In this document: positions 2,185-9,651 of the stretch, one piece after another
Layout of the letters: the number at the start of each line of letters is the position of its first letter
How positions within the stretch are numbered: position 1 is the first letter of the stretch
Origin: a virus
Taxonomy: Duplodnaviria > Heunggongvirae > Uroviricota > Caudoviricetes
Length of the DNA stretch: 18,165 nt
Reading direction: 5' to 3' (one strand)
Virus record (IMG/VR): IMGVR_UViG_2874951433_000003
The notes under the pieces: generated by a model
Told to the model about the DNA's origin: nothing
What the model saw: only the letters and a program-made list of their open reading frames with translations
Database searches by the model: none
Program-made: the position numbers and the translations under genes

Positions 2185-2260
2185 TGGCTCCTCTGACTGG
2201 ACTCGAACCAGTGACATACGGATTAACAGTCCGCCGTTCTACCGACTGAACTACAGAGGA
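2185..2260 (-). tRNA. asnT: tRNA-Asn (anticodon GUU)
   Basis: Reverse complement reads TCCTCTGTAGTTCAGTCGGTAGAACGGCGGACTGTTAATCCGTATGTCACTGGTTCGAGTCCAGTCAGAGGAGCCA, matching enterobacterial tRNA-Asn with encoded CCA. Symbol asnT inferred from adjacency to mtfA as in E. coli K-12. Confidence 0.9.
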
Positions 2261-3251: not shown

Positions 3252-3341
3252 GGAGAGATGCCGGAGCGGCTGAACGGACCGGTCTCGAAAACCGGAGTGG
3301 GGGCAACTCCACCGGGGGTTCAAATCCCCCTCTCTCCGCCA
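3252..3341 (+). tRNA. serU: tRNA-Ser (anticodon CGA)
   Basis: GGAGAGATGCCGGAGCGGCTGAACGGACCGGTCTCGAAAACCGGAGT...CCGCCA: long-variable-arm class II tRNA, anticodon loop CTCGAAA, encoded CCA. Flanked by mtfA as in K-12. Confidence 0.9.
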
Positions 3342-3368: not shown

Positions 3369-4406
3369 TCAGTGACAAAAATCACACTTGGAATTTCTTG
3401 GAATATTTTCAGGTAACGGGACATCAAGTGTCGGTGAAACTTTAACCTTCCTGTCATAGATTAGCACTTGCCCCTCGGTTTTGTGACCAGAGAAAAGTTG
3501 CTTATCCCGACTGCTTCCTTCATAGTCTGAAATTCCTTTCGCCTTCAGATCATGAAAGGTGAAGTCGGTTAAAATACCTGAAATTTTGCCTGCGCGATTT
3601 CTTGCTTCTACCCACATTTCGTTAAAGCCTTTGTACATATATCGGTTGCCGTATTGATTGCTGATTACATAGGCGGATGTTGGTAACTGTTTTGCTTTTT
3701 CGATCGCCGCCTGTAATCGTGGACTCCATGCTTTTATCTGTTTTTTTCCTGTTTTCCCTTGCTGGATAAAGATCCCGTCGTTTCCAATCTGCTCCCATTT
3801 CAGCGATAACACATCGGAAACCCTCGCTGCACACAGATAGGCAATTTCCATTGCGATAAAAACAGGAAGAGGTGCAACGCTTAATACTGCCTGGTATTCT
3901 TTGTCGGTTACATATCGTTCGCGGTTTTTGGCCTTGAATTTACTTACACCTGCACATGGGTTAGCCTTCACGTACCCTCGCTCATACCCCCAACTGTAAA
4001 CGCGGGACATACTGCTTTTTTCATGGTTGGCTTGCGTTTTACTCTGTTCCCCTCTCTTGTCCATGTATCGACGGATGTGTTCTGGTTTTATGGAATCTGC
4101 CGGCACCTTACCGAATACGGCAAGCAACTTTTTTTGATGTTGCAGATAATCTTTTTGTGTTCTTGGACTGAGGTCACTGTAATAGGCGCTGGCGAGGAAT
4201 TTTTCCCACAAGCGACCGAATGTCATTGCACGATCGCGATTATTTACAGTTTCCTCATACTTTTTCCATAAAGCAGCTAAACCATCCTTGATGGCGGTTA
4301 GTGTTACAGATTCTCTGGATGTTGGTTTCCATACATAACTATATTTATTTGGGTATACATTTGGAGGTAATTTTTCGTGTTCAGGATTTTTCCTTCGTCT
4401 TCCCAT
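3369..4406 (-). CDS. int: Lambdoid phage integrase (tyrosine recombinase), prophage integrated at serU
   Basis: 345-aa ORF starting MGRRRKNPEHEKLPPNVYPN..., lambda-Int-like N-terminus and C-terminal catalytic region. The 3' end lies 27 bp from the tRNA-Ser 3' end, the standard att arrangement. Confidence 0.85.
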   Translation of the reverse strand: MGRRRKNPEHEKLPPNVYPNKYSYVWKPTSRESVTLTAIKDGLAALWKKYEETVNNRDRAMTFGRLWEKFLASAYYSDLSPRTQKDYLQHQKKLLAVFGKVPADSIKPEHIRRYMDKRGEQSKTQANHEKSSMSRVYSWGYERGYVKANPCAGVSKFKAKNRERYVTDKEYQAVLSVAPLPVFIAMEIAYLCAARVSDVLSLKWEQIGNDGIFIQQGKTGKKQIKAWSPRLQAAIEKAKQLPTSAYVISNQYGNRYMYKGFNEMWVEARNRAGKISGILTDFTFHDLKAKGISDYEGSSRDKQLFSGHKTEGQVLIYDRKVKVSPTLDVPLPENIPRNSKCDFCH

Positions 4407-4559: not shown

Positions 4560-4614
4560 GGTAATGCTGCCAACTTACTGATTTAGTGTATGATGGTGAT
4601 TTTAAGGTGCTTGC

Positions 4615-4890
4615 GTGGCTTCCATTTCCATCAGATGTCCTTCCTGCTCCGCTACTGAAGGCGTGGTGCGTAACGGCAAAAGCACTGCCGGACATCAGCG
4701 CTATCTCTGCTCTCATTGCCGTAAAACATGGCAACTACAGTTCACTTACACCGCCTCTCAGCCCGGTACGCACCAGAAAATCATTGATATGGCCATGAAT
4801 GGCGTCGGATGTCGCGCCAGTGCACGCATTATGGGCGTTGGCCTCAACACGGTTTTACGTCACTTAAAAAACTCAGGCCGCAGTCGGTAA
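4615..4890 (+). CDS. insA: IS1 InsA
   Basis: 91-aa [46 protein letters not shown]..., the canonical IS1 InsA zinc-finger protein. Confidence 0.92.
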
Positions 4891-5312
4891 CCTCGCGCAT
4901 ACAACCGGGCAGTGATGTGATTGTCTGCGCTGAAATGGACGAACATTGGGGCTACGTCGGTGCTAAATCACGTCAGCGCTGGCTGTTTTACGCGTATGAC
5001 AGGATACGGAGGACGGTTGTGGCGCACGTCTTCGGTGAACGCACTCTGGCCACACTGGAGCGTCTTCTGAGCCTGCTGTCGGCCTTTGAGGTCGTGGTAT
5101 GGATGACGGATGGCTGGCCGCTGTATGAATCACGCCTGAAGGGAAAGCTGCACGTTATCAGCAAGCGTTACACTCAGCGCATTGAGCGACATAATCTGAA
5201 TCTGAGACAACATCTGGCAAGGCTGGGACGGAAGTCACTGTCGTTCTCAAAATCGGTGGAGCTGCATGACAAGGTCATCGGGCATTATCTGAACATAAAA
5301 CACTATCAGTAA
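4809..5312 (+). CDS. insB: IS1 InsB reading frame (normally expressed as InsAB' by -1 frameshift)
   Basis: 167-aa ORF ...[29 protein letters not shown]..., canonical IS1 InsB. Confidence 0.9.
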
Positions 5313-5787: not shown

Positions 5788-6291
5788 TTACTGATAGTGT
5801 TTTATGTTCAGATAATGCCCGATGACCTTGTCATGCAGCTCCACCGATTTTGAGAACGACAGTGACTTCCGTACCAGCCTTGCCAGATGTTGTCTCAGAT
5901 TCAGATTATGTCGCTCAATGCGCTGAGTGTAACGCTTGCTGATAACGTGCAGCTTTCCCTTCAGGCGTGATTCATACAGCGGCCAGCCATCCGTCATCCA
6001 TACCACGACCTCAAAGGCCGACAGCAGGCTCAGAAGACGCTCCAGTGTGGCCAGAGTGCGTTCACCGAAGACGTGCGCCACAACCGTCCTCCGTATCCTG
6101 TCATACGCGTAAAACAGCCAGCGCTGACGTGATTTAGCACCGACGTAGCCCCAATGTTCGTCCATTTCAGCGCAGACAATCACATCACTGCCCGGTTGTA
6201 TGCGCGAGGTTACCGACTGCGGCCTGAGTTTTTTAAGTGACGTAAAACCGTGTTGAGGCCAACGCCCATAATGCGTGCACTGGCGCGACAT
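5788..6291 (-). CDS. insB: IS1 InsB reading frame
   Basis: 167-aa ORF identical to the other copy except one residue (LARLVRK versus LARLGRK). Confidence 0.9.
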
Positions 6292-6485
6292 CCGACGCCA
6301 TTCATGGCCATATCAATGATTTTCTGGTGCGTACCGGGCTGAGAGGCGGTGTAAGTGAACTGTAGTTGCCATGTTTTACGGCAATGAGAGCAGAGATAGC
6401 GCTGATGTCCGGCAGTGCTTTTGCCGTTACGCACCACGCCTTCAGTAGCGGAGCAGGAAGGACATCTGATGGAAATGGAAGCCAC
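6210..6485 (-). CDS. insA: IS1 InsA
   Basis: 91-aa ORF identical to the InsA of the first copy. Confidence 0.92.
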
Positions 6486-6972: not shown

Positions 6973-7184
6973 AAAAGCGGAAACCTGATTATAGGTTGCC
7001 AGATAAGGCAATAAGCTACCTGGCGCGGAACGGACTGATAAGTATGGGGAATGTTTTACGATGAGTATTTAGACTAAAGAGTTTGTAACGCTATGTAAGT
7101 GATTTTTTCTGGTTTAGATATTTATATGTCCGGCCAAATTGAGGTGTGTTTAAATGTTATTGCACATTGATTGTAGGGGGAATA

Positions 7185-7364
7185 ATGAAAAACGCATTGC
7201 AGTTTTTGTTTGTTGCGTTCTGGTTGTTCGCATCATGTATGCCCATCATCTTCACAGCAAGGTATATGGAAAAAATTGATGTTTTGATATTAATGTTTGG
7301 ACATATAAATGCCCTTTTTTTAGGGGTGTTCATGGCGGTCATGTGCATTGAATACTGGCGGTAA
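7185..7364 (+). CDS. Small hydrophobic (predicted membrane) protein, 59 aa
   Basis: Internal ATG of the listed 7146..7364 ORF, preceded by GGGGGAATA, giving MKNALQFLFVAFWLFASCMPIIF...LGVFMAVMCIEYWR with two hydrophobic segments. AT-rich context. Confidence 0.4.
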   Translation: MKNALQFLFVAFWLFASCMPIIFTARYMEKIDVLILMFGHINALFLGVFMAVMCIEYWR

Positions 7365-7623
7365 ATACAGCGAACGCTATTGGTTTAGTTGGATATTTAC
7401 TGTGCCGGACAAAAACGGTTTGCAGGGAAATCTTAGTTAAGTAGAATGACTGCGGGTGCTTGAGGCTATCTGTCTCAGGCATGAACACCAAAAGGCAGAT
7501 AGAGAAAAGCCCCAGTTAACATTACGCGTCCTGCAAGACGCTTAACATTAATCTGAGGCTCAATCCATGCTGAACACATGTAGGTTAGCCTCTTACGTGC
7601 CGAAAGGCAAGGAGAAGCAGGCT

Positions 7624-7779
7624 ATGAAGCAGCAAAAGGCGATGTTAATCGCCCTTATCGTCATCTGTTTAACCGTCATAGTGACGGCACTGGTAACGAG
7701 GAAAGACCTCTGCGAGGTACGAATCCGAACCGGCCAGACGGAGGTCGCTGTCTTCACAGCTTACGAACCTGAGGAGTAA
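7624..7779 (+). CDS. hokD: Hok/Gef-family type I toxin (51 aa), RelF/HokD-like
   Basis: MKQQKAMLIALIVICLTVIVTALVTRKDLCEVRIRTGQTEVAVFTAYEPEE matches the HokD/RelF sequence as I recall it. The listed ORF from 7567 is a 19-codon in-frame extension. Confidence 0.85.
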   Translation: MKQQKAMLIALIVICLTVIVTALVTRKDLCEVRIRTGQTEVAVFTAYEPEE

Positions 7780-7847
7780 GAGACCCGGCGGGGGAGAAAT
7801 CCCTCGCCACCGCTGATGTGTCAGGCATCCTCAACGCACCCGCACTT

Positions 7848-7876
7848 AACCCGCTTCGGCGGGTTTTGTTTTTTCT
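7848..7876 (+). terminator. Rho-independent terminator downstream of hok
   Basis: AACCCGC-TTCG-GCGGGTT hairpin followed by TTGTTTTTT. Confidence 0.6.
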
Positions 7877-7946
7877 GGTCGTTCTGGTTTACAATCCATC
7901 CGTCAGCCTGAACAACTGGCACCTGCTGCGCCAGCAGAGAAAACAG

Positions 7947-8225
7947 ATGGCGCACGATACCAAATTTTACAATTCGGATAACTCTGCCGCCCCTGCCAGC
8001 AGGCACGGGCGGCGTTCTCATGCATTCAAATCTGACGGGTATCAGCACGACCCCTGCACCGAAGAACAGGCTGAATGGCTGATTCAGCGCTACCGCAGAC
8101 ACGGATACGAGATTAAGAAAGCCCTCAGTCTCGATTATCGTCACTGGATAATCTTCGTCAGGCTCCCTTATTCCGAACGGCCACCGCGTCCGTCCTGCAC
8201 ATTCCAGCAACGGATCTGGAGGTAA
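7947..8225 (+). CDS. Hypothetical prophage protein (92 aa), possibly Rem-like by position
   Basis: ATG at 7947 preceded by AGAGAAAACAG; product MAHDTKFYNSDNSAAPASRHGRR... Sits between hok and the next ORF as rem does in K-12 Qin (hokD-rem-ydfU). Assignment is by synteny only. Confidence 0.45.
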   Translation: MAHDTKFYNSDNSAAPASRHGRRSHAFKSDGYQHDPCTEEQAEWLIQRYRRHGYEIKKALSLDYRHWIIFVRLPYSERPPRPSCTFQQRIWR

Positions 8226-8226
8226 T

Positions 8227-8643
8227 GTGCGGGTATTACTTCGACCTGTTCTGGTTCCGGAACTCGGGCTGGTGGTCCTTAAGCCAGGCCGTGAATCCAT
8301 GCCGGTATTCCACAATACCCGGGTACTGGTGGAGCCGGAACCGAAAAGCATGCGTAATCTGCCGTCCGGGGTCGTTCCTGCCGTTCGCCAGCCGCTAGTG
8401 GAAGACAAAACATTGCTGCCGTTTTTCAGTAACGCACGGGTGATTCGTGCTGCTGGTGGTGCTGGCGCATTGTCTGACTGGCTATTGCGCCATATTAAAT
8501 CCTGCCAGTGGCCACACGGCGATTATCATCACAGCGAAACCGTCATTCACCGTTATGGTACCGGCGCAATGGTGTTGTGCTGGCACTGCGACAACCAGTT
8601 GCGTGACCAGACATCCGAATCACTCGAGCAACTTGCTCATTAA
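8227..8643 (+). CDS. Hypothetical prophage protein, possibly the N-terminal part of a YdfU-like gene
   Basis: ORF starts at GTG 8227 after GGAGG and TAA; the C-terminal half looks protein-like (QWPHGDYHHSETVIHRYGTGAMVLCWHCDNQL). Same frame as the 8659 ORF, separated by TAA at 8641..8643 and 8650..8652. Confidence 0.4.
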   Translation: MRVLLRPVLVPELGLVVLKPGRESMPVFHNTRVLVEPEPKSMRNLPSGVVPAVRQPLVEDKTLLPFFSNARVIRAAGGAGALSDWLLRHIKSCQWPHGDYHHSETVIHRYGTGAMVLCWHCDNQLRDQTSESLEQLAH

Positions 8644-8658
8644 AACCTGTAAGCATGG

Positions 8659-9285
8659 ATGATTGACGTCATCGGTCACGCAATAAGCGGTACGCAGGAG
8701 CGTGAATTATCTCTGGCTGAATTATCCTGGTGGGCGGTCCGCAATCAGGTGGCGGACGCGCTACCGGAAGCGGTATTACGTCGTTCGCTGGGGTTGCGTG
8801 CGGAAAAAATCCGCTCAATGTACCGTGAAAGCGACATCGTGCCGGGAGAGCAGACCGCCACCAGCATACTGAAGCAGCGCACAAAAAATCTTGCGCCGCT
8901 GCCTCACGCCCACCAGCAACAGAATCCACCACAGGAAGAGACGGTGGTCAGCATTGCCGTTGATCCGGAATCTCCGGCTCAGTATCTCCAGCGCCAGAAA
9001 CCACAACGGGAAGAGATGCCTGTATACACGCGCTGGGTAAAAACGCAGAAATGCATGACGTGTGGCAATCAGGCAGATGATCCGCACCACATCATTGGTC
9101 ATGGACTGGGAGGGATGGGAACAAAGGCTGACGATTTGTTTGTTATTCCGCTGTGTCGTAAATGCCATAACGAACTACACGCCGGGGTAAAAGATTTTGA
9201 AGAAAAACACGGTAGTCAGTTGTTGTTGCTGATTCGTTTTTTAATGCACGCGAGAAATTCGGGTGTTCTGAAGTGGAAAGCATAA
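8659..9285 (+). CDS. Prophage protein with HNH/zinc-finger-like motif (YdfU-like C-terminal part)
   Basis: 208-aa ORF containing CMTCGN...DDPHHIIGHGLGGMGTKADDLFVIPLCRKCHNELH (Cys/His cluster). Family assignment is from memory of Qin ydfU and is tentative. Confidence 0.55.
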   Translation: MIDVIGHAISGTQERELSLAELSWWAVRNQVADALPEAVLRRSLGLRAEKIRSMYRESDIVPGEQTATSILKQRTKNLAPLPHAHQQQNPPQEETVVSIAVDPESPAQYLQRQKPQREEMPVYTRWVKTQKCMTCGNQADDPHHIIGHGLGGMGTKADDLFVIPLCRKCHNELHAGVKDFEEKHGSQLLLLIRFLMHARNSGVLKWKA

Positions 9286-9651
9286 ATGACCGAACGCATA
9301 GAATTTGTTTTGCCTTACCCGCCAACGGTGAACACCTACTGGCGACGTCGTGGCAGCACATATTTTGTATCAAAAGCCGGTGAGCGTTATCGCCGTGATG
9401 TGGCGCTAATTGTTCGCCAGCAGCGACTGAAATTAAACCTGTCCGGAAGGCTGGCGATAAAGATTATTGCAGAGCCACCGGATAAGCGCCGTCGTGACCT
9501 GGACAATATCCTGAAGGCACCGCTGGATGCGCTGACGCATGCTGGACTACTTATAGACGACGAGCAGTTTGATGAAATCAATATTGTGCGCGGTCAGCTC
9601 GTTCCTGGTGGGCGGCTGGGGATAAAAATCACAGAACTGGGGTGCGCATGA
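9286..9651 (+). CDS. rusA: RusA-family Holliday junction resolvase
   Basis: 121-aa ORF MTERIEFVLPYPPTVNTYWRRRG...DKRRRDLDNILKAPLDALTHAGLLIDDEQ..., colinear with E. coli RusA including the RRRDLDN catalytic region. Confidence 0.85.
   Translation: MTERIEFVLPYPPTVNTYWRRRGSTYFVSKAGERYRRDVALIVRQQRLKLNLSGRLAIKIIAEPPDKRRRDLDNILKAPLDALTHAGLLIDDEQFDEINIVRGQLVPGGRLGIKITELGCA

Follow-up and report, generated by a model that had tools for sequence, protein, structure and literature searches.

The segment 7419..7875 of the window, by which the whole analysed stretch of 18,165 nucleotides is meant, is very probably a self-contained hok/mok/sok type I toxin-antitoxin cassette, intact in sequence and carried as a moron in a degraded lambdoid prophage. 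Judged from its sequence, the cassette joins a HokD-allele toxin to a control region of the hokW/sokW type. Features of the Hok family that are present include the toxin ORF, a structured leader, a predicted tac-fbi pairing, a mok frame with its own Shine-Dalgarno sequence (SD), and Sok. Every element of the cassette was found to be present, intact and conserved, with the pairing predicted for it, and the coordinates are collected in Table 1.

Table 1. Elements of the hok cassette and landmarks of the surrounding prophage, in window coordinates
Feature	Position	Strand	Description or basis
Integrase	3369..4406	-	
Two inverted IS1 copies	4586..5312, 5788..6485		Occupy the place of the early region
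hok promoter	7419..7447	+	-35 TTTGCA/TTGCAG, -10 TAGAAT (7442..7447), 17-bp spacer; consensus scan
hok mRNA leader (predicted)	7454..7629	+	Rfam RF01794 match
tac, translational activator element	7454..7465	+	GGGUGCUUGAGG; 5' end of hok mRNA, pairs with fbi
ucb, anti-SD box	7505..7513	+	AAAAGCCCC; pairs with SD-mok (full-length) or tac (enforced open fold)
Sok antisense RNA gene	7505..7575	-	71 nt; counterpart of the annotated sokW of 933W
SD-mok	7555..7558	+	GAGG; 8 nt upstream of ATG 7567; covered by ucb when folded at full length
mok	7567..7779	+	70 codons, in frame with hok, same stop; ORF list
Sok promoter	7581..7610	-	-10 TAACCT(A), complement of 7581..7587; -35 TTGCCT, complement of 7605..7610; 17-bp spacer; identity to 933W
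dcb, downstream complementary box	7587..7592	+	AGCCUC; pairs with SD-mok in the Rfam consensus and the enforced open fold
SD-hok, Shine-Dalgarno	7609..7614	+	AAGGAG; direct sequence reading
hok (hokD allele)	7624..7779	+	51 aa plus stop
3'-UTR hairpin	7787..7812	+	CGGCGGGGGAG...CCCUCGCC; in the minimum free energy (MFE) fold
fbi, fold-back inhibitory element	7829..7841	+	CCUCAACGCACCC; complementary to tac, one bulged C
Intrinsic terminator of hok mRNA	7848..7875	+	7-pair GC-rich stem 7848..7865, then T run

An intact 51-aa Hok frame had been claimed in an earlier note on this DNA, and it was confirmed by a Pfam match (HOK_GEF, PF01848; 82.9 bits against a cut-off of 22) and by tblastn, in which K-12 HokD and the Hok of the window proved 100% identical; reading the gene one base late, from 7625, gives rise to stop codons. 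SD-hok is unchanged across the alignment of hok mRNAs described below. The 516-bp region used as query is 100% identical in E. coli FDAARGOS_944 and in S. flexneri SFBU1023 (locus L013), and RefSeq labels the identical DNA hokD, annotating the hokD coding sequence alone; the whole window is contiguous in none of the complete E. coli genomes searched. Toxicity of the HokD coding sequence has been reported (preprint 10.1101/2025.08.07.668861), and the 51-aa HokW is toxic by itself (Takada et al. 2021, PMC8621323).

The locus had been singled out as a hokD lacking the relBE genes that precede it in K-12. The observation itself holds: with RelB/RelE of K-12 and a further RelBE pair, taken from a related prophage, as queries, tblastn detected no homologue in the whole 18-kb window (best E-value >1), and the relB-relE-hokD operon arrangement of K-12 is absent, a leader and not relE lying upstream of hok. 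The companion statement, that K-12 hokD is regarded as lacking its own antisense control, also agrees with the data, the K-12 gene having no control region of its own, in that homology between the window and K-12 begins only at ~7610, 14 nt before the hok ATG, with relE to the left of that point in K-12. Because the homology starts so close to the hok ATG, K-12 hokD is a 5'-truncated version; it has also been listed as inactivated by rearrangement (PMC12214031). The K-12 Qin gene (relF) shares with the window its Hok, SD-hok, 3' UTR, fbi (locus L012) and terminator, as well as the downstream backbone of a DUF968/ydfU homologue (80% amino-acid identity) followed by Q, but it lacks the hok promoter, tac, ucb, SD-mok, the mok start and the whole Sok gene, and has relE instead. 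The view of the window as the oddity is thus reversed by the counts: when at least 80% of the 516-bp query was required to be present, the full-leader form occurred in 3819 of 5426 complete E. coli genomes, with a median of 2 places in each genome and a maximum of 9, whereas the relE-hokD junction of K-12 occurred in 1165. Of the 80 IMG/VR contigs encoding exactly this Hok, the full leader is found in 77 and the relE junction in 2, with another arrangement in the remaining one.

The only sigma-70-like site found by a consensus scan of 7000..8100 is TTTGCA-17-TAGAAT, the -10 hexamer of which is kept among 66 unique relatives. It lies 6 nt upstream of the start, at 7454, of a match to Rfam family RF01794 that scores 118.9 bits (gathering score 59; E 5e-27) and covers model positions 1-157, which is the whole model. 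The family bears the name 'sok antitoxin (CssrC)'; since the match runs sense to hok as far as the hok AUG, RF01794 represents the hok mRNA leader with its Sok target. Northern blots of S. flexneri 301 had shown CssrC as a ~340-nt species (PMC3071730), possibly transcribed from another hok copy, and such a size suits a hok mRNA and not the 70-nt Sok. Taken together, the promoter-like site and the start of the Rfam match place the 5' end of the hok mRNA near 7454, from which a leader of 170 nt is predicted. A leader therefore exists, as the earlier note had proposed, but the 260 bp it had allotted to it are not all leader. Its description of the upstream DNA as AT-rich with a small membrane ORF agrees with a GC content of 0.34-0.37 across 7000..7400, compared to 0.54-0.57 from 7600 on, and with a hydrophobic ORF at 7146/7185..7364, for which no family was matched. 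The clean terminator reported after hok is likewise present, with a stem of seven pairs and a T run.

The fold-back elements ucb, dcb and fbi, which had been named as features to look for, are all recognizable from the Rfam match, the folds and the alignment, and tac is found in addition. Folded at full length (7454..7875), the RNA has an MFE of -173 kcal/mol (z -8.1, with no shuffle equally stable), and in this structure nt 1-12, corresponding to tac, pair with fbi, and ucb pairs with the GAGG of SD-mok; the predicted energy of the tac-fbi duplex is -21.5 kcal/mol. The arrangement corresponds to the closed, inert state of R1 hok mRNA (PMC9841398). In 3'-shortened RNAs, the unconstrained MFE structure mostly retains ucb on SD-mok and pairs tac with nt 20-29, giving a modelled hairpin that resembles a reported metastable hairpin. 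The open tac-ucb fold is the MFE structure at the 345-nt end point only among the 3' truncations folded; when enforced in shortened RNA, it lies 1.1-1.8 kcal/mol above the MFE and is nearly iso-energetic with it, and SD-mok then pairs with dcb, matching the Rfam consensus. On these energies, a tac/ucb/SD-mok switch appears thermodynamically plausible. By analogy with R1 (PMC9841398), the 3'-UTR hairpin likely forms the 3' end of the processed mRNA.

For comparative analysis, related loci were gathered with a single Hok protein as query, and 41 distinct hok mRNAs from Escherichia, Kluyvera, Photorhabdus, Pantoea, Erwinia and Citrobacter, together with an R1-like plasmid, were aligned. Counted against the window's own MFE structure, which itself derives from one member of the alignment, and in sequences delimited by 5' and 3' motifs, a choice that biases the invariant outer bases towards pairing, the paired fraction of cells is 85.4%, compared with 38-44% when partners are slid, and 46 pairs carry double changes. 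The observed values were reached by none of 500 shuffles on four of five measures, and the value for further standard pair types by 8 of 500. Position 4 of tac covaries with its fbi partner (UA in 26 and CG in 11 of the 41 mRNAs), several pairs of the Sok-target hairpin alternate between A-U and G-C among homologues, and pairing in the 3'-UTR hairpin (helix 18) reaches 95.8%, 3 of its pairs showing compensatory changes. The six inner tac-fbi pairs are undercounted, because the Photorhabdus group lacks the bulge and falls out of register in this alignment; ucb and SD-mok are nearly invariant in it. Across the 66 unique loci, which encode the identical Hok, per-column entropy is 0 bits in tac, 0.035 in ucb, 0.019 in SD-mok and 0.054 in fbi, with 0.017 in the hok coding sequence and 0.108 in the Sok promoter. 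Conservation among these relatives collapses left of ~7420 and right of ~7868, stopping just past the hok terminator.

On the opposite strand, the putative Sok gene shares 70 of 71 bases with sokW, the sole difference (7532) being in the hairpin loop, and it is predicted to fold (-30 kcal/mol, z -5.0) into a single long hairpin with a tail of 14 unpaired nt on its 5' side and a terminal UUUU. No minus-strand promoter was called by the consensus scan of 7000..8100, in which the Sok -10 hexamer TAACCT matches 3 of 6 positions. The Sok promoter was therefore assigned by identity to the mutationally defined sokW promoter, the 41 bp of 7576..7616, which hold both its -10 and its -35, being identical to 933W; the minus-strand promoter that the earlier note had suggested seeking is thereby found. 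In the work of Takada et al. (PMC8621323), HokW is toxic and sokW is its antitoxin, protecting from its own promoter; a change of the -10 region from TAGGTTA to CCGGCTC abolishes protection (primers YO-421/422), RNase III and Hfq are required, and the hokW/sokW locus speeds lysis and doubles the release of phage Sp5 after induction. By the same sequence identity, a cis-encoded Sok with its own promoter appears to lie over SD-mok and the mok start. Whether the locus is functional or silent had earlier been left undecided, and it now looks functional insofar as the fold-back elements and an antisense promoter are in place; their absence, named earlier among the grounds for refutation, does not apply.

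The closest characterised relative is the hokW-mokW-sokW locus of 933W and Sakai Sp5 (AF125520; PMC8621323). Phage 933W, in which sokW, mokW and hokW are all annotated, matches 7411..7851 at 93%, with 397 of 425 bases the same over 7419..7843, and shares with the window the Sok promoter, the Sok 5'-tail allele, an in-frame 70-codon mok, tac, ucb, dcb and fbi. The two differ in four C-terminal residues of the toxin (FTAYEPEE in Hok against FVDYESEK in HokW) and at the 3' end, where the window has a canonical terminator (7848..7865), whereas the 933W homology stops at ~7851. They also differ in setting, the 933W/Sp5 locus having another position in the phage genome and other neighbours, and the prophage of the window being defective. 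The plasmid-borne hok/mok/sok (parB) system of R1/R100, for which post-segregational killing is proven in R1, resembles the window in its predicted tac-fbi and ucb/SD-mok pairings, its dcb, the predicted two-state mRNA switch, a Sok with a 5' tail and hairpin, and a 70-codon mok, although its Hok is only 39% identical and its mok is out of frame. K-12 hokC/mokC/sokC (gef) encodes an 82% identical Hok and has a homologous leader and an in-frame mok with the same MLNTCR start; it is a chromosomal locus outside any prophage, with a shorter Sok-target hairpin and a leader of about 150 nt, and in K-12 an IS186 located 20 nt past the stop disrupts it.

A separate observation concerns a hypervariable patch at 7560..7581 (+), which comprises Sok nt 1-16 with their target (7560..7575) and the six positions upstream of the Sok start (7576..7581), and which on the plus strand covers the spacer between SD-mok and the ATG and mok codons 1-5. 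Its mean entropy is 0.78 bits, compared to 0.017 in the hok coding sequence of the 66 unique loci, and at least 15 alleles occur among viral contigs with identical Hok, differing at a median of 8 of the 22 positions. The window and 933W have the same patch allele. In S. flexneri SFBU1023, each of three co-resident copies has an allele of its own; one pair of viral contigs from the same genome shares an allele, and this pair may be a single prophage split in two. On this anecdotal basis, the patch may be, as a tentative suggestion, a diversifying determinant of Sok specificity.

The cassette is located in the nin region of a lambdoid prophage that adjoins a tRNA-Ser. After the IS1 copies, the order is a phrog_660 ORF, the AT-rich stretch, the hok cassette and a phrog_1212 ORF, followed by the DUF968/ydfU homologue, RusA, a split Q gene, four tRNAs and the lysis genes. 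The ORF at 7947..8225 was considered as K-12 Rem, which tblastn ruled out; it matches phrog_1212, a family of unknown function. The DUF968/ydfU homologue has an in-frame stop at 8641..8643, and the Q gene is frameshifted and divided between two reading frames. Together with the two IS1 copies, these lesions make a role in phage release doubtful here. The collapse of conservation in the flanks and the different neighbours in 933W argue for a moron of ~450 bp with its own promoter and terminator.

Homology with R1 hok/sok and Sp5 hokW/sokW suggests how the cassette would work. The hok mRNA would be made from its own promoter, running from ~7454 to the terminator at ~7875, and the full-length RNA would be inert, with tac on fbi and ucb over the mok Shine-Dalgarno. 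Slow 3' trimming would then take off fbi, leaving tac free for ucb and releasing SD-mok. The 71-nt Sok, transcribed from the opposite strand (7575 to 7505), would pair with the region of SD-mok and the mok start, block translation of mok and of the coupled hok, and mark the duplex for RNase III. If Sok decayed without replacement, Mok and Hok would be translated, and Hok would depolarise the inner membrane. Expression, toxicity and a role in prophage retention, or in helping lysis on induction, are expected on this analogy. The Sp5 homologue aids lysis on induction, while the prophage of the window looks unable to induce; retention of the region by addiction, phage exclusion and plain inertness are the candidate outcomes here.

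The mok frame bears on one alternative reading. As noted earlier, an in-frame extension of 19 codons starts at 7567 and gives a 70-aa ORF that ends at the hok stop, its ATG lying 57 nt upstream of that of hok; it matches phrog_251, 'MokW-like host killing' (E 8e-33). The extension had been called unusual, mok being supposed normally to overlap hok out of frame. The latter is true of R100, identical to R1 in this region, where mok has a 58-nt offset and ends 4 nt before the hok stop, and of K-12 mokB, but not of the clade to which the window belongs, in which an in-frame extension is normal: the annotated mokW/hokW of 933W and mokC/hokC and mokA/hokA of K-12 share a stop at a 57-nt offset, and of 40 relatives whose mok start could be recognised, 28 have it in frame. 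It is conceivable, though improbable, that the 70-aa ORF specifies the real product, a Hok with an N-terminal extension and a function of its own, and is not a coupling leader. The prevalence of the in-frame arrangement, the annotation of in-frame Mok proteins in 933W and K-12, and the recurrence of a (R)LASY.PKGKE motif in the extension speak for such a product. The frame is nevertheless not kept, 7 relatives being +1 and 5 being +2 (the latter with 19-codon ORFs whose stop overlaps the hok ATG), codons 2-5 fall inside the most variable patch of the whole cassette, and the 51-aa HokW suffices for toxicity (PMC8621323). Where the extension is conserved, it overlaps dcb, the Sok promoter and SD-hok, and constraint at the RNA/DNA level is enough to account for this. 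What is constant is position: in 40 of 41 relatives, mok starts 6-10 nt past GAGG and the hok ATG follows 56-58 nt later, a spacing better suited to translational coupling than to conservation of Mok as a protein. Given the variation of frame among relatives, the 70-aa product was rejected as a functional entity.

Two further alternatives question whether the control region operates. The 'silent' alternative of the earlier note, taken to mean a K-12-like locus that lacks its own antisense control and owes any expression to read-through out of upstream genes, is very unlikely. This reading could draw on the negative minus-strand scan and on RefSeq, which annotates only the hokD coding sequence at the identical locus; against it, the Rfam score of the leader is twice the gathering threshold, the Sok gene and promoter are near-identical or identical to those of validated sokW, hok has its own promoter, and K-12 homology from 7610 only makes the K-12 situation inapplicable. 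A less remote possibility, still doubtful, is that the cassette is intact in sequence but inert, being transcribed and permanently silenced, with neither post-segregational killing nor any benefit, and that it persists only because loss of Sok is lethal or by hitch-hiking on prophage DNA. Its standing derives from the chromosomal hok/sok loci tested earlier, which gave no post-segregational killing (Pedersen & Gerdes 1999, as summarised in preprint 10.1101/2025.08.07.668861). Moreover, the chromosomal hok loci of K-12 are regarded as inactivated (PMC12214031), the prophage of the window is degraded, and other Sok RNAs might cover for that of the window, given the number of copies per genome and a Sok tail allele that is the same as in 933W. 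Set against inertness are the integrity and strong constraint of all regulatory elements across the 66 unique loci, where the flanks vary freely, the activity of the closest characterised relative (93% identical, Sok 70/71), which affects phage release, and the different appearance of decayed copies elsewhere (e.g., loci L011 and L053). An intact cassette with its own promoter, leader and antisense gene thus remains the preferred reading.

Much of this was already known: the DNA is annotated as hokD in RefSeq, its leader constitutes an Rfam family, and the 93%-identical hokW-sokW has been characterised experimentally. The value of the finding, which is small as a discovery, lies in correcting the K-12 picture of hokD as the tail of a relBE operon without antisense control, a picture that holds for a truncated derivative. 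In its common natural form, hokD comes as a complete hok/mok/sok cassette, of which annotation usually omits mok and sok. The hypervariable Sok tail offers a small lead on how many near-identical type I systems might coexist in a single genome without cross-talk: if it did determine specificity, each prophage could keep a private antidote not available from other copies, addiction would be preserved despite up to 9 hok/sok copies, and the window would belong to the 933W/sokW specificity class.

Among relatives that encode a Hok identical to that of the window, variation is concentrated in a hypervariable patch that covers the Sok 5' tail, its target and the first codons of mok. At least 15 alleles of this patch were found, while the surrounding cassette is strongly conserved across the same 66 unique loci. 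The mean entropy of the patch in these loci is 0.78 bits versus 0.017 in the hok coding sequence. In a single strain, S. flexneri SFBU1023, three co-resident copies (L013, L015 and L019) carry three different patch alleles. Two other related loci are decayed copies that display the appearance of an inactivated locus, unlike the window. In one of them (L011, E. coli ECMA0423), the Hok reading frame is intact, the GGGTGCTTGAGG 5' end is gone and the leader contains several indels; in the other (L053, S. flexneri SFBU0723), hokC is frameshifted.

A hok cassette identical to that of the window is found in the prophage of E. coli FDAARGOS_944 (L002). This prophage also has a RelE/ParE-RelB pair (3233..3717 of L002), which is not fused to hok and lies on the opposite strand, approximately 5.5 kb from it, adjoining the immunity region. 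E. coli-type hok cassettes with 100% or nearly 100% identity also appear under other source names, namely two very short contigs that carry the labels Acinetobacter idrijaensis (275 bp) and Xanthomonas pisi (431 bp), a MAG and an 'Actinobacillus phage' (loci L023, L028 and L061, and the match H28, PP818812.1). These records probably reflect contamination or misassignment and not true host range.

The prophage in the window is a remnant. Straight after its integrase come two mutually inverted IS1 copies, occupying the place where the immunity and replication region should be. Farther along, the ydfU homologue and the Q antiterminator gene are interrupted, and RefSeq also reports Q as frameshifted in the related E. 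coli locus. The tRNA-Ser(CGA) gene adjoining the integrase is the probable attachment site.

Features of the window (+ and -, strand)
Feature	Position	Strand	Remarks
Host tRNA-Asn	2185..2260	-	upstream
tRNA-Ser(CGA)	3252..3341	+	adjoins integrase
Integrase	3369..4406
IS1 with transposase	4586..5312	+
IS1 with transposase	5788..6485	-
AT-rich island	7000..7400		GC 0.34-0.37
Hydrophobic ORF	7146/7185..7364	+	59-72 aa; GGGGGA in front
RF01794, 'sok antitoxin (CssrC)'	7454..7629	+	Rfam match; ends at hok AUG
Hypervariable patch	7560..7581		Sok 5' tail, its target and mok codons 1-5
TTACGAA motif	7760..7768		around Tyr47 codon TAC (7762..7764)
DUF968/ydfU homologue	8227..9285		80% identical to K-12 YdfU; in-frame stop 8641..8643
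Q antiterminator gene	9642..10502		broken across two frames, 9642..9959 and 9960..10502
Four phage-borne tRNAs	10529..10838	+	Met/Ile-type CAT, Lys, Thr, Gly; between Q and holin gene
CssrB	16983..17162	+	full-length Rfam match, 230 bits
IS009	17919..18122	+	full-length Rfam match, 129 bits

The hydrophobic ORF in the AT-rich island upstream of hok gave no match in searches of Pfam, PHROG and NCBIfam. It is unannotated in the identical E. coli locus, and a 'hypothetical protein' has been called at its position in some other genomes.

Within hok, an alignment of 41 mRNAs, one of them R1-like, shows no variation in the TTACGAA motif around the Tyr47 codon. The motif is consistent with the TadA A-to-I editing site at which Tyr is recoded to Cys; for K-12 hokD, 6% editing has been reported (PMC12214031).

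In the same prophage as the cassette, farther along, lie the CssrB and IS009 matches. For the leader itself, the matching Rfam family, RF01794, is named for the sok antitoxin, yet its match in the window lies on the hok-sense strand. Since this hok-sense match extends to the hok AUG, and CssrC was detected as a Northern band of approximately 340 nt in S. flexneri 301 (PMC3071730), RF01794 is a model of the hok mRNA leader rather than of the Sok RNA.
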